A stretch of 64,000 nt of DNA, taken from assembly GCA_037137775.1 (NCBI GenBank), contig JBAXJQ010000002.1, positions 25,095 through 89,094 on the forward strand. Direction: 5' to 3'. This document shows, in pieces, positions 30,580-64,000 of this stretch. The DNA comes from Candidatus Falkowbacteria bacterium (lineage in GTDB: Bacteria > Patescibacteriota > Patescibacteriia > Patescibacteriales > GWE2-39-37). Both the position numbers and the translations under genes were made by a program. Numbering within the stretch: the stretch's first letter is position 1; each line of letters begins with the position of its first letter. The notes beneath the pieces were generated by a model. That model ran no database searches and was not told the DNA's origin. It was given only the letters and a program-made list of their open reading frames with translations.

Positions 30580-30584
30580 AAAAA

Positions 30585-30648
30585 GTTTTGAATAAATAAA
30601 AAAGCCGTGGCGCATTTACGCGCCACGGCTTTTTTATTTATTCAAAAC
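30585..30648. terminator. 29-bp perfect inverted repeat; bidirectional terminator
   Basis: GTTTTGAATAAATAAAAAAGCCGTGGCGC - ATTTAC - GCGCCACGGCTTTTTTATTTATTCAAAAC between convergent genes. Confidence 0.85.
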
Positions 30649-30652
30649 TATG

Positions 30653-30919
30653 TCATTTTTTTGTGTCCGTTCGCTCGATTACGTTTCGACCGACAAGATG
30701 CAAGATTATTCCAATGGGTAATGCCCATGGTACGCTGACATATAAGTTATGAATGAAAAATAGTACAATAAACCTTGAGTTATTAGAGCAGTTATACGCA
30801 TTAAAAAAATCAGGATAACAGGGGGTTGAGTAGCTGTCAAAGATTGACTTTATAAGCATTATGCTGAAATAAGCCAGGAAATAAATTACTGTCAGCTTGG
30901 TTAGTTGTCTTTTAGTCAT
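30653..30919 (-). CDS. small membrane protein, unknown function
   Basis: 88-codon AT-rich ORF with hydrophobic helices. Confidence 0.4.
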   Translation of the reverse strand: MTKRQLTKLTVIYFLAYFSIMLIKSIFDSYSTPCYPDFFNAYNCSNNSRFIVLFFIHNLYVSVPWALPIGIILHLVGRNVIERTDTKK

Positions 30920-32539: not shown

Positions 32540-35299
32540 ATGCTGAAAAGAAAATCATTTTCTGTGTTATCAAAGGCGCTGTTTTTAGTCGCTGCTTTTT
32601 TTGTATTAGCAGTGATTTTTCAATGGCAGGCCAATACAGTATTAGCCGTGGTTGATCCTTTTGGCGGTCAATATAATAATGTAAATGCGGAAATCGGCCT
32701 GTCGGCAACCAACCCAACAATTTTAGCAGCTAAAATTATTAATTGGTTTTTAGGCTTTTTAGGTATTATCGCTGTCGGGCTTATTTTATATGCCGGTTTT
32801 TTATGGATGACCTCTGGTGGCGAGGTGCAGAAAATCGAAACTGCCAAAAAGATATTAAAAAATGCCGTTATTGGTTTGATTATTATATTGGCATCCTGGG
32901 GCATCGCCTTGTATATCTTAAATTTTTTAACGAATAAGACGGGTGGTCAAAACGCTGGCGGCGGCGGTGGTGGTGGCGGTGGCTTAAGTGCTTTTGGTAA
33001 TGGTATTATTGAATATGTTTATCCGGTGCCAAATCAAATGGATGTAGCCAGAAACACTGCCATTATTGTTAAATTTAGAGAAGATGTTAAGCCAGATACG
33101 ATTTGTAATGAATTAGATGCTAATGGACTTTGTAGTGATTCAAGTTTGAATTTTAAAAATGTGAGAATTTTTACCTCAGCCGCTGGCGATACTTGCGATA
33201 GCGCCACAAGCCCAAGCACTTCTTCTTGTAAGATTTCAAATATTTGGGATGTTAAAGTTAACTCAATTGATAAGCAAACGTTTGTCTTTAAGTCGACTGT
33301 TTATCTTGGTTCGCCATCTGAACGAATATGGCACACGGTCTATTTAACCAAGGACATTAAAAAGGCAGACGGCTCCAAGGCCTTTAGTGATTTAGCAACT
33401 AAAAGTGATACCAGTTGGTCCTTTGAAGTTAGTACTCGGTTGGATTTTGAACCGCCACAGGTAGAGCAAGGTGGTATTTTCCCTTTCCCAGATGCTGCAC
33501 GGGATATGTCAAATATATCTGTACCAGCTACTCAGGCAACAGGTTCAATTAGGGTTTTGAATGAGCCAAAAAAAGCAAAAAATTCTTATGCAGACAATTT
33601 TCAATCAGTGGCTTCACCAGGCATTTCAACTGTTTCTTTAGATAAATCATGTTTAGCGAATGGCCCGGCAGTAGTGGTGATGTATGAATATCCTTTAAAT
33701 TCAGGCAAGCTTGCACCAAATTTACAAATTAACGAGTCCTCGATTGGCAATGGCACAATTGACGTTAATAAAAACATAATCACGTTTCCGTACTGCAATA
33801 TTCGATTAATATTAGATAGCCCAGTTATCACTGGTAATAGCTGGAATTTTGATTTACACCCAAATATTATTGCGGATTACGTATCCATTGCCGGTGAAAA
33901 ATATATTGCCAGCACTACCTACAATGAGGCTGCAAATACTTTTGCCGCGTCAGCAAATTCAACAAATACCGCTGCCTCCCTTACAAATTTGATTAATGCA
34001 AATAATCCATTAGTGGATGCTACTAGTGCTGGCGATAAAATTACAGTAAATGCTAAAATCGCCAACGGTAGTGGTAATCAGATTAAGATTACGACTAACG
34101 GTACTAGTTTTTCCGTTAGTGGCTTGGCTGGTGGCAAGGATAGGCAAGAAAGCATTGAACCGAGAAACTCACCAGACCAACCTCGTAATTCGGTTATTCG
34201 GGTTGATTTTAACGAGGCCATAAATCCATTGTATATTTCTGGGCCAAGTACTCAGGTTTATAACTATATTCGGGTAGTAAATAATTCTACCACCGCAACT
34301 TCTTCTGGTAATAGTTGTCACTCAAATAACGAATGTCTGTCATATGAATGTGTTGGAGGATCTTGTGTTGGTGATTATTTGGCTGGAAAGTTTAAAGTAT
34401 CGAACATCTTTCGAACAGTTGAGTTTTTAAGCAATGTAGAGTGTGGCGTTAACGCTTGTGGTGAAACAATGTATTGCTTGCCAGAAAATAGCAATCTTCG
34501 TGTTGAGCTAGTTGCTGCCACCTTAGCCCCCTGTGCTAGTAATGCTATTTGTGTTGATAAGGCGCCTTATCAATATTGTAAAAATTCGATTTGTAATAAT
34601 TCATCCACTCCAGCTATTAATTTTCCGGGAGCAAAAAAACCAGTTAATGGTATTGTAGATACTGCCGATAATTCTCTTGATGGTAATAGGGATAAAAATG
34701 CCATTGGTTCAACCTCTGATTGGTATATTGAACGTCGACCAACCCCGCCATTATACCCTGATAATAGTAGCGGTTCAGGTGATAATTACCGCTGGTCGTT
34801 TATGATTGATAATCGGATTTTAATTGAAGAGCCTAAAATAACAAACACCACCCCCGTACATCGCGGAACGGTTCTATTAATGTCGAAAAATGTTGAATTT
34901 GATTTTAATCGACTGATGATGTCACAAAGTTTGACCAGTGGTGGGATAAGCATTGGCAGTGAAGCAAGTTCAACTCGGCATCGATTGGTGAATTTAATGT
35001 CTTATGGTAACCCAATTGGATATTGGATTGCTAATAAAGGTTTTGATGACGAACCGAAAGATGGTTTTTTTGACACAACTCAGGGCTTTATTGAACATGC
35101 TGATTTTGCGGCCTCCTCCACCTATCGAGGTCAGGTTGGGTCTGGAGTAAAAGATATTTATCAGAATTGTTTTAAGCCAAGTGGGACGACAATTGGCTGG
35201 TCAGGGTCTTGCGCGGCTGTCTCACCCAATTCATCTTGTTGTGGATCCTCAACTTCAGCTAGCGTAATAGCCGCAACTAGTTGTGCTGCCATCAAATAA
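32540..35299 (+). CDS. large surface protein: N-terminal TrbC/VirB2-like (T4SS pilin-type) membrane domain, poly-Gly linker, ectodomain with SbsA/BIg-like modules
   Basis: Signal peptide, then DPFGG...NPTILAAKIINWFLGFLGIIAVGLILYAGFLWMTSGG...AKKILKNAVIGLIIILASWGIALYILNFL, then GGGGGGGGG. Ig-like signatures NSVIRVDFNEAINP and NTAIIVKFREDVKP. Cys-rich C-terminus. Confidence 0.75.
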   Translation: MLKRKSFSVLSKALFLVAAFFVLAVIFQWQANTVLAVVDPFGGQYNNVNAEIGLSATNPTILAAKIINWFLGFLGIIAVGLILYAGFLWMTSGGEVQKIETAKKILKNAVIGLIIILASWGIALYILNFLTNKTGGQNAGGGGGGGGGLSAFGNGIIEYVYPVPNQMDVARNTAIIVKFREDVKPDTICNELDANGLCSDSSLNFKNVRIFTSAAGDTCDSATSPSTSSCKISNIWDVKVNSIDKQTFVFKSTVYLGSPSERIWHTVYLTKDIKKADGSKAFSDLATKSDTSWSFEVSTRLDFEPPQVEQGGIFPFPDAARDMSNISVPATQATGSIRVLNEPKKAKNSYADNFQSVASPGISTVSLDKSCLANGPAVVVMYEYPLNSGKLAPNLQINESSIGNGTIDVNKNIITFPYCNIRLILDSPVITGNSWNFDLHPNIIADYVSIAGEKYIASTTYNEAANTFAASANSTNTAASLTNLINANNPLVDATSAGDKITVNAKIANGSGNQIKITTNGTSFSVSGLAGGKDRQESIEPRNSPDQPRNSVIRVDFNEAINPLYISGPSTQVYNYIRVVNNSTTATSSGNSCHSNNECLSYECVGGSCVGDYLAGKFKVSNIFRTVEFLSNVECGVNACGETMYCLPENSNLRVELVAATLAPCASNAICVDKAPYQYCKNSICNNSSTPAINFPGAKKPVNGIVDTADNSLDGNRDKNAIGSTSDWYIERRPTPPLYPDNSSGSGDNYRWSFMIDNRILIEEPKITNTTPVHRGTVLLMSKNVEFDFNRLMMSQSLTSGGISIGSEASSTRHRLVNLMSYGNPIGYWIANKGFDDEPKDGFFDTTQGFIEHADFAASSTYRGQVGSGVKDIYQNCFKPSGTTIGWSGSCAAVSPNSSCCGSSTSASVIAATSCAAIK

Positions 35300-35301
35300 T
35301 T

Positions 35302-38300
35302 ATGACCAACCAAAAACAAAAATTCAAAGTCATCCTTTTTAGCCTAATCTTGATTTTTGGGGCTATGTTCAGCTTGGTTGCCGTGCGAGCCGAGGTTGAT
35401 CCGTTTGGTGGTCAGCAAGAAGCCGTCGGTAATGCCATTGGTCTAGGTAATAGCAACCCCCAAATAATGGCTGCGAAGGTTATTAACTGGGGGTTGGGTT
35501 TTTTAGGGATTATAGCGGTTGGTATAATTTTATACGCTGGGTTTTTGTGGATGACCTCGAATGGCAATGCGGATCAGGTTGACCGGGCTAAAAAAATCTT
35601 GATTGGCGGCTTGATTGGGTTAATCATAATTTTAGCCAGTTGGGGTATTGCCACCTGGTTGGTTAATTCTTTGGTTGATGTGACTGGCGGTGGAGGTGAT
35701 GGCGATAGAGGCAATATTCCACCGGGCGGTGTTGTGACTTTTGGTGTAACCAGTGTTAACCCACCAGGTCTCGAAAGTGCGCCGTTGAACGCCAAGGGCC
35801 TGGCTTTGTATAACATGACCTTACTTCCGGGAAGTGGTACATTAACTGTTACCACTAATCCAGCAGTAAGCTATGCCATAAATTCTAGCACTGACAATAA
35901 TTTGGTGGTTTTTCAATCGAGCAGCACCTGTGAAGAGATAAACATTGCTTATAAATTAAAATTAGTAATTCCAGAAGAACACAAAAACGACCTTTGCTTT
36001 GCACCATCATCAACTACGATTTATAAAGCTACGGTTAGTGGATATAAAAATTTAGGAGGAGTTACGCAAGATCCAACAGATAAGACCTGGGATTTCTCTT
36101 TAATTCCGGTACTTGATTTTAACCCACCCGATATTCTTATTGACCGCACGAATCAATGTATCGCCGCTGGTGGCTACCCGCTTAAGGCGCATATCATTGA
36201 CGATTTGTCAGCAGTTATGAAAGCGAAATTCGAAGTGTATGATCCGACAAATTTTCTGGTATTTCAAGCAACCGTTACGCCACCTGTTTTAGGTAAAAAC
36301 GTGTGGGTAACTACCAGCACTTCGGCAATGACACCACCCACTAGATATAAAGTTGTGGTTTTTGCCTACGACGCAGCGGGAAATAGCACGAGCACGTTTG
36401 ATTATATAATTCCTTGGCCAGCTCATTGTTGTAATAATCAGCCAGATCCCGGTACGGAAACTGGTACTGATTGCGGCGGTGAGTGCCCAGCTTGTGACGG
36501 AGCCGCTTGCGCTATTGACATGAATATACCGGCTGGCATTGCTCCAAATTGGTGTACGGATGGAAATACTTTATGTGCTAGTAGTTTTTGTAAAACAACC
36601 AGCAGCACCTCTACTTGTGAAAATGCTGGCTATGCCGCTGGTACAGCATCATGTTGTACCTGTCAATCCAGGCCAATGATTACGGGCATTTCACCGGTAG
36701 GCGGGTTTTGTAAAGCTAATACCACTAAGCCCTGCAATAAAAATGCAGACTGTGGCGGGGCTGACACCTGTAATATTGATGCACCAAATGGTGCAACTAA
36801 TAATTTTATTACTATTTTTGGTAATAATTTTGGCACCATTGCTGGCAATGTGTACTTTGAGGGCAATGCCACGGGCACCCTACCGAGTGTATTAAATTCA
36901 AACTGTACCAGCACCTGGAAGGATAATCAAATTATCATAGCTGTGCCAAGCGATGCGGCCTCTGGCACAATTATTGTTAAAACGGCGGTTGGCCTAACTG
37001 ATACCTCGAGTTCAAGTGATTCTTATGGGCCAGTGATTAAAGACTTTGTTAAAGTCGGCTTTGATCGGCCTGGTATTTGTAAATTAACTCCGGATTCAGG
37101 TAAATTAAACGCAACTTCAACCTATTATGGCATAAATTTTACCAACAATAACGATATTGCATTTGGTAGCGCAGTCACCTCGACTTCTTTTTTGAAGGCA
37201 CTAGGCCGCAACATTATAAATACTACCACTGCTACTGCCACGGTGCCAAATTTAACCCTTGGCAAGACGTCTTCCTTTGTTTTAAAAAATGTCGGGTCAG
37301 TAATAGTAAATAGTAATTATGTTGATTTTACCAAATTATTAGATCCGTATGCTGGGCCAGTTATCTCTGATTTTAATCCTAAAGATGGTGGGCCTGGCCA
37401 GTATGTAACGATTTGGGGCAGGGGGTTTGGGGCAAGACAAGGCACAAGCAGTGTCCGCTTTGCCAGTACCTCGCAAGCTGACACCTGGACGGCAGACTAT
37501 AATTTTCCACCAATTTGTCAGGACAAGACCTGGTCGGATAAACAAATCATCATTAAGGTACCATCCGGAACCGTAAGTTCTACGCTCTACACCCTGGAGG
37601 TTGAGGTGGGTCCACATACCGCCACTGCTGATTTTAAACAATTTTTACGCAATAAAAATGTACGCCCTGGTATTTGTCTTATTAACCCAAGTTTAACCCA
37701 AATTGGTGTGCCGGTTGAGTTTTCGGGTGATAATTTTAAGAAGCCAATAAGTCCCAATGCTACTTTTAGTGAAAATAAGGTTAAGTCTATTGATGATATC
37801 GATTGGACATACGACAAATCTCCAAATCGAACTGAGGCACCAGTAGTTGCAGACTCAATTACTGGTCCAGTGGTTTTAGTTAACAACTCTGCAATCAGTA
37901 ATCCGCTTAACCTCACTGTTGGTACGTGTAAAACTGATGCCGAATGCTCAGGCACAGGAGTAATCTGCTGTCCAGGAGGCTCCACCTTTGCTGGGTCGTG
38001 TGCCACACTGTCGAAGTGTTTTGAGGGTCCAAAAACCAGTGCATATGAATGGGATTTTACCACTAATCCAAACGGTAATTGCCAAATAGGTACGACCATG
38101 TGTGGCACCGAGGCATGTTGTGTAACGGGCACAGAGAGTTGTAATGCATTAGCCAATGGCAATAAAGGGTTATGTTCGCCGATTCCACAAACGTGCTCTG
38201 GCATGGCACAAAATATGTGTACTTCCCAACCTCAATGTCCTAGCTCACCTGGGGTGTGTCAAACCGTAACTAGCACTGCTTCTGTTGGTAAATGCGGGGA

Positions 38301-41300
38301 TAATGTTGCCTGTAAGAGCTTATTTGGGGGATTATATAATTACACATTTACAGCTAATACATGTGAAATTACAACTACGACTGCAAGTGGAGCTAATGTT
38401 GCTTGCAGTCCTACCGCACCTCATGCTTCCTCAACCTGTAATTTGGTAAATTCGATATATGTCTGGCAAATGCCAGCTCAAACATCATGCCCGCCCAGCT
38501 CGCCTGTCACATTTAAAGATATAAATGGTAAATGTACGATTGGTACGCTTGGTAGTCCAAGTGTGTGCTTAGGTTGTCCGGGTGATTTTTCATGTAATTT
38601 GGCTGGTAAATGTGTTTCTGCTCCAGTTTGTGCCGCTAGTTCAACTTGTAATACTACATCAAATACGTGTATACCCAATAAACCAACGGGCACTTGTGAA
38701 TGTTGCTGTCGAACTGCGCCAATGTATGCAGCTCAAGACTGTTGTCTTGGCCTGCAATGCACCCCTGGGCTTTGCGGTACGGGTAATGTTAACTATGGCC
38801 AGTGTACTGGTTGTCGCGTTGAGATTGATAATATTGGCGCTACTTACACCTCTGGGGAAAAGAATTTAAGTGATTCGGCCTGCAATTGTAAAGGTAAACA
38901 GGCAATGCACTGTGAAGTAAAAATAATTAGTGATGATGTTTTTGGAAATATCGTTTATGACGGTTCAGATTCCGGTACCTGCAAGGAAGGTGCCCCCGAT
39001 GTTTCCATGTTTTGCGATGATAGTACTCCAACGCAATGTACGACCGGTGGTAGTGATTGTGTTGATCCAGATAAAGTGTGTAGCACTAAAACCGGTTGCG
39101 CTTGCGAGGTTATCCCTTGTTCAAAAGATACTACCCAATGCACCCCAGATGATTCAGTTTGTACAGATATTGGCCCTGATTTAGAATGCGATCCGGTTTC
39201 ATGTAACTGCACCAGTGAACCATCTGTGCCACCGGGCGAACAATGTATATTGCCAATAAATCCAACTTGTACGGACGGGGTGGCCAGTTGTGGACCGCCA
39301 CAAGATAAGCTTTCTTGTATTACTAGTAGTGGTGATTGTCGTTGTTGTTGCACGCCAGGGGACACCAAGCCTGTGCCTGGAACCAACCGTCAATTAGTTT
39401 GTATTCAAAACCAAGGGGATTGTACTGGTGCTGTTCGCGGTTTATTCTGTGGATGTCAGGCCAATACGGATTGTGGCAATAACACCTTCCTTGCTGCCTG
39501 TGGTCAAGACACTTGTTGTTATCCACGGCCAATAGTAGTCAGCACGGTGCCAATGAATAATGCTAAAGATATTTGTCTTAATCCGTTGATTAGTGTTACT
39601 TTTGACCGGCCTATGAACCCAACCAGTTTTAATGGTAATGTTATTTTGGCGCTCGATAATGGCTTAAGTGTTTGCCCTAAAGGATTGCCATATGTAGCTA
39701 CAAGTGATAATTCAATGGGTACTTTGGCGCGCTGGTGGACAGGGGTTAAACAATTTTTTGGCTTTAGTGCCACTGCTGCCAGCAATAATTTCTGTGCCAT
39801 TCCTGGTATAGTGAATAATTATGTTAAGCAGAAGGGTCTCGGCACAACCACGATTCTGACTTTTTCCCCTTCAATTTTACTAGATAAATATAAAACCTAT
39901 CGAGTAATCGTTAAAGGTGATGCCAGCTCCTCCGATTCTGTTAATGAAGGCGTTCTAAGTGCGAATGGGGTTTCCATGGCCACCACTAGTGTGGCCACTA
40001 CTAGTGTTGAGTTTATTAATGGCGTAAGATTTACCGGCACAATTTGGCAATTTACCACCGGTGATCGAGTTTGTACTTTAGATAAAGTAGTTATGGATCC
40101 AGCTGCTTATACTTTTTTCCGTGGTAGTGACAGCCCTAATTCATCTTCTACACCAAATCAAATAACCATGATTGCCATTCCTGAGTCAGCTAATGGTCAA
40201 CAGATTGTAGCTGTGCCGACGATATATGATTGGTCTTGGGCCTGGTCTTCAAATGATACCACCGTGGTGACCGTTTCTGGGGCCACAACCAGTATGGAAA
40301 CACTTAAAGCTCAAACAAAAAAAGATGGCACCACCAAGGTTAACGCTAAGGCAAAAATAACTGTTGACACATTAAATAATCCCACAACCGCCAATATTAA
40401 AACAGTAACCGGTAGTGCTAATATTAGATTGTTTATTTGTTCAAACCCTTGGCCACCGTATAGTGATCCAACAACCTGGCCCTGGCAAGATAATGCTGCA
40501 AATTGTTCCATAAATGCTGCACAGTGTAGTAATTATAATTTTGAGCTCTATTATTGTCGTGATGGCGCAGCCGCGGGCAACACCTATTTGCCTTCAATTA
40601 TGAACACCGGCACAGTCATTCGCGGAGCTACTACTACACCGACTGTTAATGATATGCTTAAGGAATATTATTTCTTGCGCGCGCCATTGCCAGCAGAAAC
40701 CCAAGGTTTTATTGGTTATCCGATGGCAACTGGTAGTGCAGTAAAGTTGGATTGGACAGCATCAGCTGTACCGGGTTTGAGCTATAAAGTATATTACGGC
40801 AAAGCAACTGGTAATTACACAAACTATGTAGCGGTTACAACGAATAGTACAATCATTTCTAAATTAACCAATGGTCAAAAATATTATTTTGTGGTTAAGG
40901 CTGCTTCATCAACGACTGGTGCGGAAAGTGTAATATCTAAGGAAATCAGTGTTACACCAAAAGATGTTTTAGCACCACCAACGGTTGTTTTTACCATTAT
41001 TCCAGGTGATAAAAAGGCTAATTTAACATGGACAAGGGTGGCTGATGCAGTCAGCTATAAAGTGTATTATGGTAACAATCCCGCTCCATATTTTGGGGCC
41101 AGTAAGGTTGTCGGTGATGTTAATTCGGCTGCATTTAGTGGCCTAAACAACGGTACGGTGTATTATTTTTCAGTTGTTGCGCTTGATAGTGCTGGCAATG
41201 AAAGCAATAAAGTGGTAAATCAAAGAGTGATTATGCCAGACGCGGTTGCACCACTTTCCTTTAATAATGTGTTAAAATCGGTCGATTTTGAAACAGACGT

Positions 41301-42264
41301 TTTTGCGTCAGCTGATTGGGAAAGAAGCTTGCCAACGAGCTATAAGCACGCCAAAGTTGAGCTATCCAAAGCCGAGCATGTTTCTGGGGGTCAAAGTGTG
41401 TTGTTTCACAAGGATGCAAATATTGAATTCCCAGGCAAGTGCAGTCAAGCGTTATGTAATGATATGATAAATCCAAAATGTACTTGGGGTGCTCCAGTGG
41501 CTAACGCCTGTAATTTTAAAAATAGAGACGAAAACGAAAAATTATTTGTGCTTGATACACAATCCTTGGTTTATCAAAATCAAAATTTTTCAAACTACAA
41601 CCAATTAAAATATAACATAAAAAACTTAGCACTTGTGCCTGGAAAAAAATATGTTATTTCATTCTATTATAAGGGTAAAAATATAATTCCTGTAGTGCCC
41701 TCGATAACTGGCTTTCCAGGCTGGAGCACACAGTGTACGCCAAAATCTGCGCTTTATGTTCTTACTGATGTTAGTTCTGCTGCAGTTTGTGCTCTTTATG
41801 GTCCAACAAAGGCGACGTGGAATGTGGCAAGTAGTTCTTGTGATTTTTTTACTAATGAAAATGGTGGCACCACTAGCCCATCTTCTTACCCAGCAGGCAC
41901 TACCTTTACCCGCTGTCGACCGGATCTTTGGACTGCTGCTTTTGACACTTGCGTAGATCAACCAACTCATTGTTGCCGACAAACACCGGCGCAGAAAAAG
42001 TGTTTTAGTACAGTTAATGTATATGCCATTGGTGATCCAGCTAAAAAGGCAATAAATATTCCAGCAGGCAACTATGTGTCGGGTGGTTATAATGGCTGGT
42101 ATTTGTTTCAAGGTTTGTTTGATTATTCTGCAATTATGGATGATTGGAAATTATCTAATGGTACATTAAGTCGCTATTTTAATATTGATGAGTGGTATGT
42201 AGATACAAATTCAAGTGGTTCTGATTTTTATATTGATGACTTAGTTTTTGCCGAAAGTAATTAA
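35302..42264 (+). CDS. giant (2320 aa) surface protein: TrbC/VirB2-like membrane domain + IPT/TIG-like repeats + very Cys-rich region + BIg-like + two FN3 + C-terminal lectin/CBM-like domain
   Basis: ATG 35302 lies 2 nt after the upstream stop. The N-domain is about two-thirds identical to that of 32540..35299. IPT-like segments are ITGISPVGG...ITIFGNNFG and ISDFNPKDGGPGQYVTIWGRGFG. FN3-like segments are LDWTASAVPGLSYKVYYG...YYFVVKA and LTWTRVADAVSYKVYYG...YYFSVVALDSAGNES. Confidence 0.8.
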   Translation: MTNQKQKFKVILFSLILIFGAMFSLVAVRAEVDPFGGQQEAVGNAIGLGNSNPQIMAAKVINWGLGFLGIIAVGIILYAGFLWMTSNGNADQVDRAKKILIGGLIGLIIILASWGIATWLVNSLVDVTGGGGDGDRGNIPPGGVVTFGVTSVNPPGLESAPLNAKGLALYNMTLLPGSGTLTVTTNPAVSYAINSSTDNNLVVFQSSSTCEEINIAYKLKLVIPEEHKNDLCFAPSSTTIYKATVSGYKNLGGVTQDPTDKTWDFSLIPVLDFNPPDILIDRTNQCIAAGGYPLKAHIIDDLSAVMKAKFEVYDPTNFLVFQATVTPPVLGKNVWVTTSTSAMTPPTRYKVVVFAYDAAGNSTSTFDYIIPWPAHCCNNQPDPGTETGTDCGGECPACDGAACAIDMNIPAGIAPNWCTDGNTLCASSFCKTTSSTSTCENAGYAAGTASCCTCQSRPMITGISPVGGFCKANTTKPCNKNADCGGADTCNIDAPNGATNNFITIFGNNFGTIAGNVYFEGNATGTLPSVLNSNCTSTWKDNQIIIAVPSDAASGTIIVKTAVGLTDTSSSSDSYGPVIKDFVKVGFDRPGICKLTPDSGKLNATSTYYGINFTNNNDIAFGSAVTSTSFLKALGRNIINTTTATATVPNLTLGKTSSFVLKNVGSVIVNSNYVDFTKLLDPYAGPVISDFNPKDGGPGQYVTIWGRGFGARQGTSSVRFASTSQADTWTADYNFPPICQDKTWSDKQIIIKVPSGTVSSTLYTLEVEVGPHTATADFKQFLRNKNVRPGICLINPSLTQIGVPVEFSGDNFKKPISPNATFSENKVKSIDDIDWTYDKSPNRTEAPVVADSITGPVVLVNNSAISNPLNLTVGTCKTDAECSGTGVICCPGGSTFAGSCATLSKCFEGPKTSAYEWDFTTNPNGNCQIGTTMCGTEACCVTGTESCNALANGNKGLCSPIPQTCSGMAQNMCTSQPQCPSSPGVCQTVTSTASVGKCGDNVACKSLFGGLYNYTFTANTCEITTTTASGANVACSPTAPHASSTCNLVNSIYVWQMPAQTSCPPSSPVTFKDINGKCTIGTLGSPSVCLGCPGDFSCNLAGKCVSAPVCAASSTCNTTSNTCIPNKPTGTCECCCRTAPMYAAQDCCLGLQCTPGLCGTGNVNYGQCTGCRVEIDNIGATYTSGEKNLSDSACNCKGKQAMHCEVKIISDDVFGNIVYDGSDSGTCKEGAPDVSMFCDDSTPTQCTTGGSDCVDPDKVCSTKTGCACEVIPCSKDTTQCTPDDSVCTDIGPDLECDPVSCNCTSEPSVPPGEQCILPINPTCTDGVASCGPPQDKLSCITSSGDCRCCCTPGDTKPVPGTNRQLVCIQNQGDCTGAVRGLFCGCQANTDCGNNTFLAACGQDTCCYPRPIVVSTVPMNNAKDICLNPLISVTFDRPMNPTSFNGNVILALDNGLSVCPKGLPYVATSDNSMGTLARWWTGVKQFFGFSATAASNNFCAIPGIVNNYVKQKGLGTTTILTFSPSILLDKYKTYRVIVKGDASSSDSVNEGVLSANGVSMATTSVATTSVEFINGVRFTGTIWQFTTGDRVCTLDKVVMDPAAYTFFRGSDSPNSSSTPNQITMIAIPESANGQQIVAVPTIYDWSWAWSSNDTTVVTVSGATTSMETLKAQTKKDGTTKVNAKAKITVDTLNNPTTANIKTVTGSANIRLFICSNPWPPYSDPTTWPWQDNAANCSINAAQCSNYNFELYYCRDGAAAGNTYLPSIMNTGTVIRGATTTPTVNDMLKEYYFLRAPLPAETQGFIGYPMATGSAVKLDWTASAVPGLSYKVYYGKATGNYTNYVAVTTNSTIISKLTNGQKYYFVVKAASSTTGAESVISKEISVTPKDVLAPPTVVFTIIPGDKKANLTWTRVADAVSYKVYYGNNPAPYFGASKVVGDVNSAAFSGLNNGTVYYFSVVALDSAGNESNKVVNQRVIMPDAVAPLSFNNVLKSVDFETDVFASADWERSLPTSYKHAKVELSKAEHVSGGQSVLFHKDANIEFPGKCSQALCNDMINPKCTWGAPVANACNFKNRDENEKLFVLDTQSLVYQNQNFSNYNQLKYNIKNLALVPGKKYVISFYYKGKNIIPVVPSITGFPGWSTQCTPKSALYVLTDVSSAAVCALYGPTKATWNVASSSCDFFTNENGGTTSPSSYPAGTTFTRCRPDLWTAAFDTCVDQPTHCCRQTPAQKKCFSTVNVYAIGDPAKKAINIPAGNYVSGGYNGWYLFQGLFDYSAIMDDWKLSNGTLSRYFNIDEWYVDTNSSGSDFYIDDLVFAESN

Positions 42265-58427: not shown

Positions 58428-60191
58428 ATGAAAATTGATTTAAGCCAACATTGCAAAATTTCATTGTTTAGTACATTTTTTGTTTTTGTTTTTCTACTCC
58501 TCGCTCACCGCGGCGAAGCCGCGGTGTTCTCCCATAACCTCAGTCAAGGCAGTCGTGACACCGAGGTTAAAGCCCTACAACAGTATTTAAATACCCATGG
58601 CTATCCGGTAGCACGTACTGGTGCTGGCTCTCAGGGCAAGGAAACCATGGTATTCGGTCCGGCCACCAAACAAGCCCTCATTCATTTTCAGAAGGATAAT
58701 CACATTACCCCAGCCAATGGCTATTTTGGCCCTGCTACCCGCAAGGTTATGGCTACGGTGCGGAGTGCCGCAGGCACTACGCCAATCCCCAAGACTCCCC
58801 CAGCTACTCCATTATCTACACCCAAACCAGCAAACCCCCCAGTCATTCCAGAAGCACCTCTCCCCAGTACACCAGAGATCACCCTGGCAACCTACACCAT
58901 CGGGGGTACCATCATGGGGCTCACTGGTCAGGTAACGCTCACAAACAATGCCACTGACCAACTCAGCCTCACCCCTGCTAGCGCCAGTCTGTTTACCTTT
59001 CCCACCGCACTGCCTACCGGGGCACGCTATAATGTGACCGCTACCCCCAGGGGTATTAACGAGCATTGTTTTCTCATTAATAACTCCGGCATGGTAGCGA
59101 GTACCAACATCACCACCATTCAGATTGCCTGTGGTACCACACTCACCGACACTACTCCAGCCAATCCCTTTACCAATCCCATCATCCCCAGTAGTGCTCC
59201 CACTACCCATGAGCTCAGCTACACGACGGATGGTCATGGTACGATCACTGGCTCCTCTACGCAGAGTATTACCTTCTCTGCGAACGGAACTGAGATAACC
59301 GCTACCCCAAATACCGGCTATCACTTTACCACCTGGAATGATGGGCTCACCAACCCCAGGAGAACCGATACTAATATCAGGAGTGCCCAGACTTATACGG
59401 CTAACTTTGCTATCAATATCTACACCTTAACCTACACGGCCGGTGCGAACGGCACCCTCAGTGGTACTACCACTCAGACGGTGACGCATGGCAGTGCTGG
59501 TACCGAGGTATTAGCCATCCCAGATGCTAATTATCATTTTGTGAGTTGGAGTGATGGGGTATTAACTGCTTCCAGGACGGATAGTAGTGTTACTTCGTCG
59601 TTAGCAGTTACGGCCAGTTTTGCTGATTGTGGGGAAATAGTAACTGATGCACGAGATGGTAATACGTATCCAACCGTTAAAATTGGTAGCCAGTGCTGGA
59701 TGGCCAAAAATGCGGCCTATCTACCCAGTGTAGTACCTGCTGCTACCGGTGGTGCCTCACCGTACTATTATGTTTATGGCTATCAGGGTTCTAGTACGGT
59801 TGTGGCTAAAGCTCAAGTCAACTATACAAAATACGGTGTGCATTATAATTATCCAGCTGCACTTACCGCCTGTCCTGCTGGTTGGCACCTGGCTACTGAT
59901 GCTGAATATACGGTTCTTACCACCTATTTAGATCCTTCGGTGGCTGGCACTAAAGTTAAATCCACCTCTACTTGGGTAGGTGGCACTAATACTTCTGGTT
60001 TTTCTGGTGAACCTGCTGGCTCTCGTGAACCTGCCGGCTGGTTTGGTTTTAGCGGTACAGACGGCTTTTTCTGGACGGCTACTCCAAGTGGCGGGAATGC
60101 CTGGATTCGTAATTTGTATTCAGGTTCAGATTTTTGGCGGGGTGCAGCTAATCAGTTGTACGGATTTTCTGCCCGTTGCCTTAAGGATTAA
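58428..60191 (+). CDS. secreted protein: peptidoglycan-binding domain + Listeria/Bacteroides-type (InlB B-repeat-like) repeats + Fibrobacter succinogenes major paralogous (FISUMP) C-terminal domain
   Basis: PG-binding segment VKALQQYLNTHGY...FGPATKQALIHFQ. Repeats YTLTYTAGANGTLSG...ANYHFVSWSDG. C-terminal segment DARDGNTYPTVKIGSQCWMAKN...GWHLATDAEY...GFSARCLKD. Confidence 0.7.
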   Translation: MKIDLSQHCKISLFSTFFVFVFLLLAHRGEAAVFSHNLSQGSRDTEVKALQQYLNTHGYPVARTGAGSQGKETMVFGPATKQALIHFQKDNHITPANGYFGPATRKVMATVRSAAGTTPIPKTPPATPLSTPKPANPPVIPEAPLPSTPEITLATYTIGGTIMGLTGQVTLTNNATDQLSLTPASASLFTFPTALPTGARYNVTATPRGINEHCFLINNSGMVASTNITTIQIACGTTLTDTTPANPFTNPIIPSSAPTTHELSYTTDGHGTITGSSTQSITFSANGTEITATPNTGYHFTTWNDGLTNPRRTDTNIRSAQTYTANFAINIYTLTYTAGANGTLSGTTTQTVTHGSAGTEVLAIPDANYHFVSWSDGVLTASRTDSSVTSSLAVTASFADCGEIVTDARDGNTYPTVKIGSQCWMAKNAAYLPSVVPAATGGASPYYYVYGYQGSSTVVAKAQVNYTKYGVHYNYPAALTACPAGWHLATDAEYTVLTTYLDPSVAGTKVKSTSTWVGGTNTSGFSGEPAGSREPAGWFGFSGTDGFFWTATPSGGNAWIRNLYSGSDFWRGAANQLYGFSARCLKD

Positions 60192-60259
60192 TATAATAAT
60201 AGGCCATTACTCCGAGTTAATATTAGGATTGGTCTAATTTTAAAGTGTAAAAATTAGTC

Positions 60260-60288
60260 TAGACAAAAGCCATAAAATAGCTTACAAT
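60260..60288 (+). promoter_or_regulatory. candidate promoter for the response-regulator gene
   Basis: TAGACA, a 17-nt spacer, then TACAAT. Confidence 0.4.
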
Positions 60289-60315
60289 AGCAATGAATTA
60301 TGATTAATTTTTTGT

Positions 60316-60687
60316 ATGGATAAGAAAAAAATCTTGGTAGTAGAGGATGACCCGGTTTTGGGGGTTATGTATAAAACAAAGCTAGAAGCCGAAGGGTATG
60401 AAATTGTTTTAGCAGTTAATGGTGCTGATGGCTTGACCATGGCGCAACAAAATTCATTTGATATTGTATTGCTAGACGTAATTTTGCCCCAGTTGGATGG
60501 TTTTTCGGTCTTGGCTGAATTAAAAACTAATGAGGTTACCAAAAATGTTCCAGTCATTATGTTAACCAATCTTTCAACCACCGAGGACAAGGAAAAGGGC
60601 TTGGCCATGGGTGCTGCTGATTATTTGGTCAAAGCCGAATACACGCCGGAACAGTTAAGCGAGGCGATAAATAAGTATATTAAATAA
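60316..60687 (+). CDS. stand-alone response-regulator receiver domain (CheY-like)
   Basis: VVEDD, phospho-acceptor context VLLDVILPQLDG, then MLTNLS and the conserved Lys in ADYLVKAE. Confidence 0.85.
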   Translation: MDKKKILVVEDDPVLGVMYKTKLEAEGYEIVLAVNGADGLTMAQQNSFDIVLLDVILPQLDGFSVLAELKTNEVTKNVPVIMLTNLSTTEDKEKGLAMGAADYLVKAEYTPEQLSEAINKYIK

Positions 60688-60734
60688 TTTATTAATGTAG
60701 CGGTCGAGCAATCGAGCGCTTTTATATTACCCCT

Positions 60735-61337
60735 ATGGCTATTATTAAAAAAGAACGGACGTTAATAATCCTTAAGCCGGATACCATCCAACGTTCCATG
60801 ATCGGAGAGATTATCGGCCGCATCGAACGGACTGGTTTGAAATTTACTGCTTTGAAATTTGTCGTGCCTCAGGAAGAGCAATGCTGGACCCATTATAACA
60901 AAGACGAAGCGTGGTTTAACGAAAAAGGTGCCCGTGTGATAAAAGAGCGTGAGGCCCAAGGAATGTCGGTTGATAAACCAGCCTTGGAATATGGTAAAGA
61001 TATTTTGCGAGGCAATGTTTTGTTTTTTACCTCCGGTCCTGTTTTGGTGGCTGTAGTAGAGGGCAATCAAGCAGTTGGCATTGTTAAAAAATTAGTAGGA
61101 GCTACCGAGCCATTAACATCTGACGTGGGTACTATCCGCGGTGATTTAACCATTGATTCTTATGCCTTGGCTGGTATCGATGGTCGGGCAGTACGTAATC
61201 TTATCCACTGTTCTGATAAACCAGAAGAAGCCGAGCGGGAGATTCAGATTTGGCTAAAACCAGAGGAAATAATCAACTATCGCTTGGTAGCCGAACAAAT
61301 TCTATACGATGTTAATTTAGATGGTATTTTAGAATAA
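60735..61337 (+). CDS. ndk: nucleoside diphosphate kinase (long form with an internal insertion)
   Basis: ERTLIILKPD...RGD...NLIHCSD active-site His context. Confidence 0.88.
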   Translation: MAIIKKERTLIILKPDTIQRSMIGEIIGRIERTGLKFTALKFVVPQEEQCWTHYNKDEAWFNEKGARVIKEREAQGMSVDKPALEYGKDILRGNVLFFTSGPVLVAVVEGNQAVGIVKKLVGATEPLTSDVGTIRGDLTIDSYALAGIDGRAVRNLIHCSDKPEEAEREIQIWLKPEEIINYRLVAEQILYDVNLDGILE

Positions 61338-61364
61338 AGCTAATTTTAGCTAAAATATGTAATA

Positions 61365-61393
61365 TTGACAACTCTCTGGTTGTTCGGTATATT
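61365..61393 (+). promoter_or_regulatory. candidate promoter giving a leaderless or near-leaderless transcript of the mini-ORF
   Basis: TTGACA (61365-70), a 17-nt spacer, then TATATT (61388-93). The ATG is at 61403. Confidence 0.45.
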
Positions 61394-61402
61394 ATATATA
61401 AT

Positions 61403-61480
61403 ATGAAAAAGTTTAACAGCACCATTATTACCCTCAGTGTCGTCCTCCTCTTTGGTAAGGACAACTTGGTGCTGGGTTAA
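61403..61480 (+). CDS. 25-codon mini-ORF rich in Ile/Leu/Val; candidate attenuation leader peptide
   Basis: MKKFNSTIITLSVVLLFGKDNLVLG, in which 10 of 25 residues are I, L or V. Its 3' end can pair with the 5' arm of the downstream terminator. Confidence 0.4.
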   Translation: MKKFNSTIITLSVVLLFGKDNLVLG

Positions 61481-61504
61481 ATAAATAATCACAAGATTAT
61501 ATAG

Positions 61505-61532
61505 AAAAAACCTAGCACACGCTAGGTTTTTT
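61505..61532 (+). terminator. rho-independent terminator (attenuator candidate)
   Basis: AACCTAGC-ACAC-GCTAGGTT followed by TTTT, with an A-run on the 5' side. Confidence 0.75.
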
Positions 61533-61559
61533 CATTAGCAGTTCATTCGACAAAAATTA

Positions 61560-62345
61560 TTGGTTATTTTGACCTTTGCATAAAAAGTGCAGGCGAACAA
61601 CGCCACTTGGTCTAGCACAAACCCACCGGTTAGTGCGACAATTTAAGAACTTTTTATGCAAAGGTCGCCCATCGAGGCCTTGCCTCACTACCAGATATGG
61701 AGGATTTACCCATGAGCAATATCGCAGGCGAAAGCGACGTCAGTTGCAAAGGTCCACATCGTTGTGCAAGGAAGTGTCAAAATCTGGCAAAATGTGAATG
61801 TTTGAGACGACCTGGCTCGTCTCATCGGCAATCAGGAAATCCTGGTTTACGAACAAGGAGACAAAATCCCCGTTTAGGGGAGCAGTCAATCATGGGTGCT
61901 TACGACTTATAACCAATAATGAACATCAGTAAAATGAGTGGGGCATTACTTCCCCATGAAGCCTTACTGTCCCTCCGTCGAGACTAAGTCTCTGAATGAT
62001 AAAAGCACTCAACAGGGCCTTAACTGTTGAATAAGTTGTTCGCTTTTATCAAAGGACGCCTGTAAATGGGACAGACTGTCTTAAGCCTATGTCGACTTAA
62101 CACGGTGCAGGTGAAAAAAACTCAAAGGCAATGCTGATGATCATATCGGGGGAGGGGAATAAGCTTCGGCTTAAACTCCTCCCCCACCTAGAATATTCTA
62201 AAACGATTCACATATGTCTGCTGTTTTATATCAACTAAACCCACTCTCGCTCGAGCTTTTGTCTCGAGCTGGCTTTGTGTTATGCCCTTGATTTTTGATT
62301 AAATCGATGGTAAAACAGAAAGCCACCAATTTGGTGATTTTTTTG
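61560..62345 (+). ncRNA. candidate large structured RNA or unannotated element (identity unknown)
   Basis: About 0.8 kb with only short Arg/Cys-rich ORFs. Many hairpins with GAAA (61728-35) and UUCG (62148-62185) capped stems, and an 8-bp long-range pairing of 61708-15 with 61890-97. It ends at a weak hairpin plus T7 (62322-62344). Confidence 0.3.
61571..61666. repeat. 18-bp perfect inverted repeat separated by 60 nt
   Basis: GACCTTTGCATAAAAAGT (61571-88) and ACTTTTTATGCAAAGGTC (61649-66). Confidence 0.9.
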
Positions 62346-62500
62346 TATAAAAATGCTCTTTACATTATAAACATTGTTTGTAAAAAACAAACAAAGAAAG
62401 GAAAAAAAATGATTATTTTGGGTTTATCACCCAATCGTTCGGGGCGAAGTTGACGTTTACGGCTAAGGCCACAACATGCGCATACGCGCAGGAGGTTCAC

Positions 62501-64000
62501 ATGAGCGCATCACAGTTAATCAGGATTTTTGACACCACCCTTCGGGACGGCGAGCAATCTCCAGGCAACAGCATGAACATCGAGGAGAAACTGCGGATTG
62601 CCAAACAACTCCAGAAGTTGAACGTCGACGTAATTGAGGCCGGTTTTCCCATTGCATCCGAAGGTGATTTCGAGGCCGTCAAGCGGGTCGCTCAGACCAT
62701 CAAGGGGCCGGAGATCGCCGGACTGTGTCGCGCCAGTGACAAAGACATCGACCGGTGTTGGGAAGCGCTCGCGCCTGCCGGTGAGAAAGGCCGGATCCAC
62801 ACCTTCATCGCTACCTCGGACATCCACATGAAGTACAAGTTGCGAATGTCACCTGTTCAAGTACTCGAAGCTGCAGTTAAAGCGGTTAAGCGTGCGGCCA
62901 GCTATACTCCAAACGTAGAATTTTCCTGTGAGGATGCTGTCCGTACCAATCTGCCGTTTCTGGCCGAAGTAGTCGAGGCTGTTATTGCCGCCGGGGCTAC
63001 TACGGTCAACATTCCAGACACCGTCGGTTATACGGTGCCCAGCGAGTACGGTAATATCATGCGGTATCTTCGGGAATTCGTTTCGAATATCGACAAGGCC
63101 GTTATCTCGGTCCATTGTCATAATGATCTCGGCTTGGCTGTGGCCAATTCAATCGCTGCCATTAGCGGTGGTGCTCGACAAGTCGAATGTACCATCAATG
63201 GCATCGGAGAACGGGCCGGTAACTGCTCACTGGAAGAGTTCGTGATGATACTCAAAACCAGGAGCGACATCTTGCCATTCCGCACGAACGTAGTATCGGA
63301 ACAACTCACCCCAGCCAGTCGGCTCCTCACAACCATCACTGGCACTATGGTGCAGTCGAACAAGGCGGTGGTCGGTGCTAATGCGTTTGCCCACGAATCG
63401 GGAATCCACCAGCACGGGATGATCATGGATAACTCCACCTATGAGATAATGACTCCCGAATCAGTTGGTCTCAAGGCCAATGCGCTGGTGTTAGGAAAAC
63501 ACTCCGGTAGTCATGCTTTTAATAAGCGACTTAGGGAGATGGGGTACGACCTGAACGAAGAAGACCTCAAAAAGGCCTTTGTCAAATTCAAAGATCTGGC
63601 CGACCTCAAGAAAGAAGTCTTTGATGAGGATCTCGATGCCATCGTGGCGGAAGAGGTGATGCGGCCGGCGGAGAAGTATAAGCTGGATCACATTACCGTC
63701 ACCTGCGGTTCATTTTCTGTGGCAACTGCTACTGTGCAACTGGAAATTGACGGTGTACCGGTTCGAACGGCCGAGTTGGGAGACGGACCGGTTGATGCCA
63801 CCTTCAAGGCAATTAAAAAGTTGACCAAGAGCAAAGCCAAACTTGAACGGTACAATGTGGGAGCAATTACGGGTGGCACCGACGCTCAGGGTGAGGCTAC
63901 GGTAAAGTTGAAGTATGGTGATGTAACCGTAAATGGTCGTGGTGCTTCAACTGATATTATCGAAGCCTCGGCCAAAGCTTACGTCGACGCCCTGAATCGG
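62501..64000 (+). CDS. leuA: 2-isopropylmalate synthase (3' end beyond the window)
   Basis: My own translation gives MSASQLIRIFDTTLRDGEQSPG...HCHNDLGLAVANS...GERAGN...HESGIHQHG plus the C-terminal LeuA dimerisation/regulatory region. Strong SD GGAGG 5 nt upstream. The gene is absent from the ORF track because no stop codon falls in the window. Confidence 0.9.
   Translation, partial: MSASQLIRIFDTTLRDGEQSPGNSMNIEEKLRIAKQLQKLNVDVIEAGFPIASEGDFEAVKRVAQTIKGPEIAGLCRASDKDIDRCWEALAPAGEKGRIHTFIATSDIHMKYKLRMSPVQVLEAAVKAVKRAASYTPNVEFSCEDAVRTNLPFLAEVVEAVIAAGATTVNIPDTVGYTVPSEYGNIMRYLREFVSNIDKAVISVHCHNDLGLAVANSIAAISGGARQVECTINGIGERAGNCSLEEFVMILKTRSDILPFRTNVVSEQLTPASRLLTTITGTMVQSNKAVVGANAFAHESGIHQHGMIMDNSTYEIMTPESVGLKANALVLGKHSGSHAFNKRLREMGYDLNEEDLKKAFVKFKDLADLKKEVFDEDLDAIVAEEVMRPAEKYKLDHITVTCGSFSVATATVQLEIDGVPVRTAELGDGPVDATFKAIKKLTKSKAKLERYNVGAITGGTDAQGEATVKLKYGDVTVNGRGASTDIIEASAKAYVDALNR

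Follow-up and report, generated by a model that had tools for sequence, protein, structure and literature searches.

A probable leaderless leader-peptide attenuator between ndk and leuA in a Candidatus Falkowbacteria genome, and its relatives in the Candidate Phyla Radiation

Ribosome-mediated transcription attenuation belongs to textbook knowledge. Most of the documented cases are from Proteobacteria, and Actinobacteria have provided leaderless ones. The present work deals with a candidate element of this kind, hereafter E1, located at positions 61365-61533 of a 64,000-nucleotide (nt) stretch of DNA from an uncultivated Candidatus Falkowbacteria bacterium (contig JBAXJQ010000002.1, positions 25,095 to 89,094 of the forward strand). 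This whole stretch is hereafter called the window, and coordinates refer to it unless another locus is named. E1 is probably a ribosome-mediated leader-peptide transcription attenuator on a leaderless transcript. A full-text search of the literature returned no relevant report of leader-peptide attenuation in Patescibacteria or the Candidate Phyla Radiation (CPR). The mechanism is known, the family and the lineage are new, and these previously undescribed leaderless attenuators of CPR bacteria are very likely real.

The closest experimentally studied system is the ilvBNC attenuator of Corynebacterium glutamicum, in which the leaderless IlvL transcript starts 1 nt from the AUG, encodes the peptide MTIIRLVVVTARRLP and forms three hairpins, and in which loading of the 70S ribosome requires that the bases right after the AUG be unpaired (PMC11857589; for the attenuator itself, Morbach et al., 2000, as cited in PMC11857589). 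E1 resembles IlvL in several respects: (i) a predicted transcription start at or near the start codon; (ii) no ribosome-binding site; (iii) mixed Ile, Val and Leu codons; (iv) three competing hairpins; and (v) free bases after the AUG, the first 8 nt of the E1 transcript being unpaired in the predicted fold. In contrast to IlvL, which belongs to Actinobacteria, E1 is found in Patescibacteria, has a longer leader (25 codons) and shows no sequence or covariance-model similarity to it. Besides, the first gene behind E1 is an orphan open reading frame (ORF) instead of ilvB, and a second attenuator lies further downstream.

The enterobacterial leaders leuL, ilvL (ilvGMEDA), pheL and trpL share with the CPR elements the 1:2 / 2:3 / 3:4 pairing logic, a stop codon placed to mask segment 2, and regulatory codons upstream of segment 2. 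The correspondence extends to the genes concerned, as the CPR family has Leu-type leaders before leuA and Phe-type leaders before pheA with chorismate mutase. On the other hand, enterobacterial leaders lie in a 5' untranslated region (UTR) with a Shine-Dalgarno sequence and are covered by Rfam models, both of which the CPR elements lack, and E1 has no long homopolymeric codon run. As for Actinobacteria, leaderless polycysteine short ORFs have been described in mycobacteria (bioRxiv 10.1101/834739), and leader peptides have been predicted ahead of ilvB, trp and cys genes, many of them without an obvious terminator (Seliverstov et al., PMC1262725). Both groups share with the CPR elements leaderless short ORFs that head operons and whose codon content senses one amino acid; unlike the actinobacterial leaders, the CPR elements always have a canonical intrinsic terminator and a co-varying antiterminator. 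Outside Proteobacteria, branched-chain genes are also preceded by a Leu-rich attenuator peptide in the ilv-leu operon of Staphylococcus aureus, where it is not leaderless and acts with CodY (PMC5794164). This leader is comparable to the second element before leuA (hereafter E2), but has no sequence relationship to the CPR elements.

Rfam leader models were also run at a permissive E-value over 61250-62600, where the best scores were 18.4 bits for Thr_leader (terminator only) and 19.7 bits for Phe_leader (on E2), against a gathering score of 55; at gathering score, no Rfam family matched anywhere in the 64-kb window. The CPR elements, in short, belong to no Rfam leader family. E1 lies 3' of a gene at 60735-61337 that encodes nucleoside diphosphate kinase (ndk, 200 amino acids), and its parts are the following:

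61365 to 61393, plus strand: promoter, with -35 box TTGACA (61365-61370), a 17-nt spacer and -10 box TATATT (61388-61393).
61403 to 61480, plus strand: leader ORF of 25 codons, encoding MKKFNSTIITLSVVLLFGKDNLVLG, with no Shine-Dalgarno sequence.
61411 to 61424, plus strand: segment 1, the 5' strand of helix P1 (anti-antiterminator), from the minimum-free-energy fold.
61436 to 61466, plus strand: inner hairpin within the leader ORF, from the fold; sequence and number vary among relatives.
61467 to 61482, plus strand: segment 2, the 3' strand of P1; it includes segment X (61469-61478, GTGCTGGGTT) and overlaps the stop codon (61478-61480).
61485 to 61500, plus strand: small linker hairpin ATAATC-ACAA-GATTAT, from the fold; nested in the antiterminator and equivalent to hairpin P4 of relatives.
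61504 to 61533, plus strand: intrinsic terminator, segments 3 and 4, a 13-base-pair (bp) perfect stem GAAAAAACCTAGC / GCTAGGTTTTTTC with loop ACAC.

A first, sequence-only reading of the window had named a promoter, an ORF, a pairing, a terminator and the distance to leuA, and all of these are present where it placed them. The promoter agrees with the consensus at 11 of 12 positions and is the best promoter-like site within 60000-64000; from it, transcription is predicted to start at ~61400-61403, so that the RNA would be leaderless or have a 2-3-nt leader. Isoleucine, leucine and valine (I/L/V) account for 10 of the 25 residues of the peptide (codon positions 8, 9, 11, 13-16 and 22-24) and for 7 of the 9 codons from 8 to 16. 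X is complementary to AACCTAGCAC (61509-61518), in the 5' arm of the terminator, over 10 bp with one G-U; of dinucleotide-shuffled versions of the ORF, 0.1% have, at any position, 10 contiguous bp complementary to the terminator arm. X can pair either with this arm or with segment 1, and in the minimum-free-energy fold its partner is the 5' part of the ORF (P1, 61411-61424 : 61467-61482). In this model, P1 would be the anti-antiterminator, i.e., the counterpart of the classical 1:2 hairpin. The sequence-only reading had seen the mutually exclusive pairing and missed this third helix, which completes a three-state design. Since the stop codon overlaps X, a terminating ribosome would cover segment 2. 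The 141-nt E1 region folds with z = -6.3 relative to shuffles. The terminator has a core AACCTAGC-ACAC-GCTAGGTT-TTTT that extends to a stem 61504-61516 : 61521-61533 of -18.7 kcal/mol; an automatic scan for terminators overlooked it for the sole reason that the T-run becomes part of the stem through the A6/T6 extension.

The weight of the argument lies in conservation. The attenuator unit recurs in more than 25 places across related CPR genomes (cited below, where needed, by L-numbers, which are labels of related CPR loci compared with the window). In the whole family, it consists of a strong promoter that ends 6-9 nt before an ATG, a 16-34-codon ORF without a Shine-Dalgarno sequence, P1, X, the terminator, and co-oriented genes. 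The DNA 3' of ndk was inspected in 80 related species or loci, the relatives of the window's ndk being Patescibacteria/CPR genomes throughout. A similar small ORF, 80-260 nt past ndk and with the full unit, is present in 18 of the 80: TTGACA-N16-17-TAnnnT promoter, 25-34-codon ORF, short linker hairpin and intrinsic terminator. A further ORF runs in the same direction and lies 30-100 nt past the terminator; it has a strong GGAGG, and the gap is too short to hold a separate promoter. In several to many relatives, the terminator of ndk itself directly precedes the E1-type promoter, which argues that the unit is an independent transcription unit and not the 3' UTR of ndk. Individual folds of the relatives match the architecture of the window, the intrinsic terminator is kept in all copies, and X either precedes the stop by 0-5 codons or follows it by up to 6 nt. 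The promoter geometry of all copies predicts a start 0-3 nt before the AUG.

Although E1 has no close relative in the collections searched, it is orthologous to the copy MIKNYTKTCVKAIIALIIALVGKKFALGLVRLDQ of L050 and L140; I, L and V interchange between the window and L050, and the two E1 copies can be aligned along 130 nt (64%, E = 1e-4), P1 showing compensatory changes between them. Conservation of the ORF and of the pairing, which had been proposed as a check, is therefore found together with compensatory changes. A second family of small ORFs 3' of ndk (GRFFVLLF...) was rejected, as it is the translated ndk terminator. Separately, a different kind of leader RNA was noticed upstream of ilvE (class IV aminotransferase) in L023 (7630-7775), where a TTTGCA-N18-TATAAT promoter is followed by a 26-bp long-range inverted repeat enclosing ~75 nt, with neither leader ORF nor terminator.

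The three competing helices co-vary. Covariation was assessed on 13 sequences aligned with MAFFT, without any fitting to structure. Since RNAalifold on a raw 18-sequence MAFFT alignment recovered the terminator and nothing else, the helices were specified by hand and tested by pair counts and by an alignment-free permutation. The pair counts were as follows:

Antiterminator (X : terminator 5' arm): 96% of cells paired, 2 pairs changed on both sides.
P1: 80% of cells paired, 8 pairs changed on both sides.
Linker hairpin P4: 77% of cells paired, 7 pairs changed on both sides.
Terminator: 88% of cells paired, 2 pairs changed on both sides.

When the partners were slid by 1-3 columns as a control, 33-51% of cells were paired. 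The 10-bp mutually exclusive antiterminator/terminator pairing that had been pointed out in the window is thus borne out across the 13 relatives. Diverged copies keep the complementarity of X with an entirely different sequence (GGGCGGUUU/GGACUGCCC in L045; UUUGAGUGGUUU/AGACCACUCAAAC in L025). In the alignment-free test of 20 elements, the mean contiguous run formed by the 3' end of the ORF was 8.4 bp with the arm of the element's own terminator versus 6.0 bp with those of others, and none of 100,000 permutations reached the observed total (p<1e-5). Finally, a covariance model built from the 13 relatives, with the window excluded, matches 61403-61531 of the window (33.6 bits, E = 0.002) and also copies directly upstream of leuA in L050, L024 and L025.

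Copies away from ndk were found by a covariance-model search and by a scan for promoter, ATG, short ORF and terminator. Those that precede recognisable biosynthetic genes are:

L025, position 8119: leader MKKVYVKNLLLGLLLLFTSGLVFV; LeuA-family gene 50 nt further on.
L050, position 7955: leader MKKAIKKNSLSLSLSLLLLRWSFVV; leuA downstream.
L140, position 3223: leader MKKATGKNLLSLSLSLLLLRWSFVV; leuA downstream.
L024, position 7433: leader MNNFINNNLLNLSSLVIEV; leuA downstream.
L041, position 7230: leader MQEMRLNNFFSFYFFS; prephenate dehydratase (PDT), chorismate mutase (CM_2) and aminotransferase downstream.
L031, position 7187: leader MKNTQLQNCFNFFCFSLIRRSVV; chorismate mutase (CM_2) and PDT-ACT downstream.

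Leader composition correlates with the downstream genes. A leader ending in SLSLSLSLLLLRWSFVV precedes leuA; the enrichment in Leu of the Leu-type leaders has p = 0.001-0.004, and that of the aromatic leaders in Phe/Tyr/Trp has p ~1e-4. Because different synonymous codons (UUA, UUG, CUG, CUU, CUC) make up the Leu runs, what is repeated is the amino acid and not a nucleotide word. The leader frame is open in every one of the more than 20 diverged copies, and frames 2 and 3 carry stops. Across the alignment, conservation is highest at codon position 2 (entropy 0.73, against 0.98 and 0.93 for the other two), a pattern that fits what is expected if NUN codons (Ile/Leu/Val/Phe/Met) are kept but interchangeable. 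The attenuator reading that had been proposed for the window alone is thereby strengthened by a unit conserved in many Patescibacteria, Leu-rich before leuA and Phe/Tyr/Trp-rich before pheA and chorismate mutase. Two further leaders, MQKQVQKFMYFYFWFIDTGRFVFANIG (L006, 6676-6810) and MIKTLQKTYFYFWFFFFRSRRLVFCGVLTD (L025, 10025-10171), are strongly aromatic and are followed by tiny hydrophilic ORFs, with no aromatic-pathway genes; no database search of these ORFs was made.

In the window, the sole recognisable biosynthetic gene downstream of E1 is leuA, whose start lies 968 nt past the E1 terminator. The features between and including them are:

61712 to 61912, plus strand: first ORF after the E1 terminator, 66 codons, GGAGG ribosome-binding site, Cys/Arg-rich.
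62214 to 62291, plus strand: E2 leader ORF, 25 codons, encoding MSAVLYQLNPLSLELLSRAGFVLCP, with 7 Leu from 5 different Leu codons.
62270 to 62325, plus strand: E2 antiterminator hairpin, formed by the 3' end of the ORF (stop included) with the linker plus the initial bases of the terminator arm.
62321 to 62344, plus strand: E2 terminator CCACCA-ATT-TGGTG followed by T7, a weak stem that overlaps the antiterminator by ~3 nt.
62501 to 64000, plus strand: leuA (2-isopropylmalate synthase; Pfam HMGL-like, HCS_D2, LeuA_dimer), cut by the window end.

E2 (62214-62344) is a second attenuator, of Leu type, immediately 5' of leuA. Its Leu enrichment has p = 0.004, and its peptide can be aligned with the leaders next to leuA in L050 and L140. 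The 3' end of the E2 ORF forms a long hairpin with 62301-62325, in which a compensatory swap is seen relative to L050 (UGGCUUUGUG/CAGAAAGCCA versus UGGUCUUUUG/CAAAAGACCA), and the E2 terminator is homologous to ACCACCGC-AAAA-GCGGCGGT-T7 of L050. When E2 was folded with its 5' part masked, a mask to 62262 kept the antiterminator and a mask through X freed the terminator. The gap of ~970 nt between E1 and leuA, which had seemed odd, is explained by this proximal Leu-rich attenuator of leuA itself. The earlier remark that leuA is the next recognisable gene on this strand stands; the orphan ORF comes first, though, and leuA has its own attenuator.

A convincing promoter was not found for E2, there being no site of at least 9/12 between 61534 and 62500. 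The E1 promoter is the only strong one over 61400-64000, and so the most economical reading is that E1, the 66-codon ORF, E2 and leuA form a single transcription unit. The 66-codon ORF, presumed to be the first cargo of E1 read-through, has no Pfam match and no homologue beyond itself among 5.8 billion proteins, and it may not be real as a gene. When 61540-62500 was compared with the equivalent regions of L050 and L024 (tblastx, blastn), nothing was conserved, either coding or RNA, besides E1 and E2.

Two structures in this interval are recorded in their own right. At 61571-61666, 38 nt past the E1 terminator and ahead of the orphan ORF, there is a branched structure of 96 nt whose closing stem is a perfect inverted repeat of 18 bp (GACCTTTGCATAAAAAGT / ACTTTTTATGCAAAGGTC); the 180 nt of 61536-61715 fold with z = -5, and the structure has no Rfam match and is not conserved in the relatives. 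Immediately upstream of E2, at 62148-62185, there is a strong GC-rich hairpin without a U-tract that may serve in RNA processing or stability or may act as an atypical terminator. An unrelated GC-rich hairpin is found at the matching relative position in L050 (7892-7915).

Taken as an attenuator, E1 would work as follows. RNA polymerase would start at the AUG or 2-3 nt 5' of it, and a 70S ribosome would load directly on the 5' AUG, helped by the 8 unpaired first nt. Three helices would then compete, namely P1 (61411-24 : 61467-82), the antiterminator (61469-78 : 61509-18) and the terminator (61504-16 : 61521-33), with three possible outcomes: (i) with no ribosome, P1 would form, then the terminator, and transcription would stop at ~61535; (ii) with a ribosome that runs to the UAA, X would be covered, the terminator would form and transcription would likewise stop at ~61535; and (iii) with a ribosome stalled within codons 8-16 on Ile/Leu/Val (61424-61450), P1 would have its 5' strand occupied or held apart, and the freed X would capture the emerging terminator arm, so that the polymerase would read through. 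The read-through RNA would carry the orphan 66-codon ORF, then probably E2 and then leuA, with the two attenuators in series; it probably continues that far because there is no other good promoter between. The decision at E1 must be kinetic, given that the terminator always wins at equilibrium. In the trp attenuator, the decision is also kinetic.

Several findings weigh against this interpretation. To begin with, the -10 box ends 9 nt before the ATG, which makes a 2-3-nt leader likely for E1. Nowhere does the peptide repeat one residue four or more times in a row, and its I/L/V enrichment is marginal (p = 0.038 versus 22.6% in the window's own long ORFs); as, in addition, an open frame of this length is expected by chance in ~18% of cases, the E1 ORF is not significant alone and derives its significance from conservation in relatives. 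The branched-chain specificity that had been proposed for it is, in consequence, plausible, fitting the peptide and its L050 orthologue, and statistically weak when taken from this single peptide. As regards the folding with alternatives that had been suggested as a check, P1 and the terminator came out. Equilibrium folding with a masked 5' part, however, never gives the E1 antiterminator, since the terminator wins, and forcing the antiterminator costs ~9 kcal/mol; attenuation being kinetic, the masked folding of E1 was counted neither for nor against. The relatives with the closest NDK, L164 and L166 (fetched by protein search), lack the element; L167 and L168, also close in NDK, carry a copy of the L007 type. 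The gene directly after E1 is an orphan without homologue and not a biosynthetic gene. Lastly, some ndk-linked orthologues are not significantly I/L/V-rich, and the first cargo genes in the relatives are unrelated small ORFs without family match (in Pfam, PHROGs or NCBIfam).

These last observations bear on the alternative that survives best, according to which the architecture is kept but does not sense particular amino acids, so that general stalling or translation capacity (e.g., antibiotics, stringent conditions, slow translation) would switch on variable small proteins. Such a sensor would suit the several E1-type peptides that are not significantly I/L/V-rich and the ndk-linked leaders that precede orphan ORFs instead of Ile/Leu/Val genes; besides, short hydrophobic leaders are typical of stall-sensing attenuators. 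It is nonetheless considered unlikely: in the sister elements, Leu-rich leaders go with leuA and Phe/Tyr/Trp-rich ones with pheA and chorismate mutase, the conservation of the second codon position keeps NUN codons, and in L024 the leader before leuA begins with MNNF, the N-terminus of the E1 type.

Decidedly improbable is the proposal that E1 stands by itself as a gene, complete with promoter and terminator, whose product would be a small hydrophobic peptide of the membrane, either a type I toxin (the alternative put forward in the sequence-only reading) or another, for which the complementarity to the terminator would be irrelevant. E1 has in common with type I toxins of the Ibs, Fst, TisB and AapA class a hydrophobic peptide in the range of 20-35 residues and a highly structured mRNA; many type I toxin mRNAs have, as E1 does, a long-range 5'-3' helix. 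Its short, hydrophobic peptide also keeps N- and C-terminal motifs among close relatives. These 'motifs', however, are the two strands of P1, and a plain gene has no need for covariation between X and the terminator. In the relatives, the hydrophobic stretch is interrupted by charged residues or proline (LLDLNILL, VVKGLIL, VELIIM), the L042 and L052 copies differ by three non-synonymous and two synonymous codon changes, and the downstream genes have no promoters of their own. Unlike type I toxins, E1 lacks an antitoxin RNA promoter, a 5' UTR and a sequestered ribosome-binding site, its terminator co-varies with the 3' end of the ORF, and its cargo would depend on read-through. No minus-strand promoter-like site reads into 61403-61535, the sole nearby one (61371 to 61343) pointing away. 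The covariation and the missing antisense promoter leave the toxin disfavoured.

Least probable of all is an RNA-only leader (a riboswitch, or a protein or RNA site) in which a ligand-stabilised P1 would sequester X and the ORF would be incidental, because, even though the competition between P1, antiterminator and terminator has the layout of an OFF riboswitch and the ATG lacks a Shine-Dalgarno sequence, there is no conserved junction or loop core (only the helix strands are conserved, and the inner hairpins differ among copies both in how many there are and in sequence), the diverged copies have kept an open frame and an ATG at the start site, the amino-acid runs in mixed synonymous codons match the cargo genes, and no Rfam family matches.

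Attenuation by a leader peptide is, therefore, the reading kept here, and it has to be placed in its genomic setting. The GC content rises from ~0.40 to 0.53 at leuA. An assembly chimera is not the cause, since the ndk-to-leuA stretch is identical in three independent assemblies, i.e., contigs that carry the exact NDK of the window at 100% identity and that serve for this check only, as they hold no comparative information. The leuA gene, complete in L001 (538 amino acids), is solitary: leuBCD are absent nearby and the next gene, on the opposite strand, encodes a DAO/Mqo-type oxidoreductase (L001, 11767-14903). Its best relatives (<=83% identity) lie on contigs of GC 0.5-0.6 without ndk, which suggests that leuA was probably acquired horizontally. 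When metagenomes were scanned with LeuA, most of the loci returned were GC-rich and had neither ndk nor leaders of this kind, and only L140, a strain of L050, was useful.

The ndk side of the locus is variable. In three loci without the element (L019, L032 and L069), the ndk terminator is directly followed by a conserved gene for a membrane protein of ~400 amino acids (MKNFLKKFAVVLIELAVIAG...), and the same gene stands behind E1 and orphan ORFs in four loci with the element (L030, L042, L052 and L055). Because the membrane-protein gene adjoins ndk where the element is absent, E1 and its cargo look like a variable inserted cassette.

Elsewhere in the window, a tRNA/tmRNA scan gave no match. The ORF list alone contains an ORF of 2327 codons (a giant protein) at 35281-42264. 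The attenuator scan picked up a 66-nt perfect palindromic terminator between convergent genes at 30584-30649, which is probably just a shared bidirectional terminator; in the same region (30584-30801), the minus strand has a promoter-like site and a 31-codon ORF that starts at 30801.

As a tentative proposal, and a rather speculative one, the ndk-linked E1 elements may constitute a Patescibacteria-specific amino-acid-starvation switch in which the regulatory part is kept and the cargo swapped. The cargo would be hypervariable tiny orphan proteins encoded between ndk and the membrane-protein gene, possibly host-interaction or scavenging factors of auxotrophic episymbionts, and in the window the switch would stand in series with a Leu attenuator on a horizontally acquired, solitary leuA.

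If the attenuator reading is true, the minimal and mostly auxotrophic CPR bacteria would monitor their charged-tRNA supply by means of compact leaderless attenuators, in a family with at least three specificities: (i) I/L/V-type; (ii) Leu-type; and (iii) aromatic-type. The new covariance model can be used for the annotation of CPR genomes, and the elements would provide a sequence-level handle on the nutrients that limit CPR cells and would point to orphan small proteins induced under amino-acid limitation. Likewise, the partial pathways that these bacteria have retained (leuA alone, ilvE, pheA with chorismate mutase) would be regulated and, therefore, functional.

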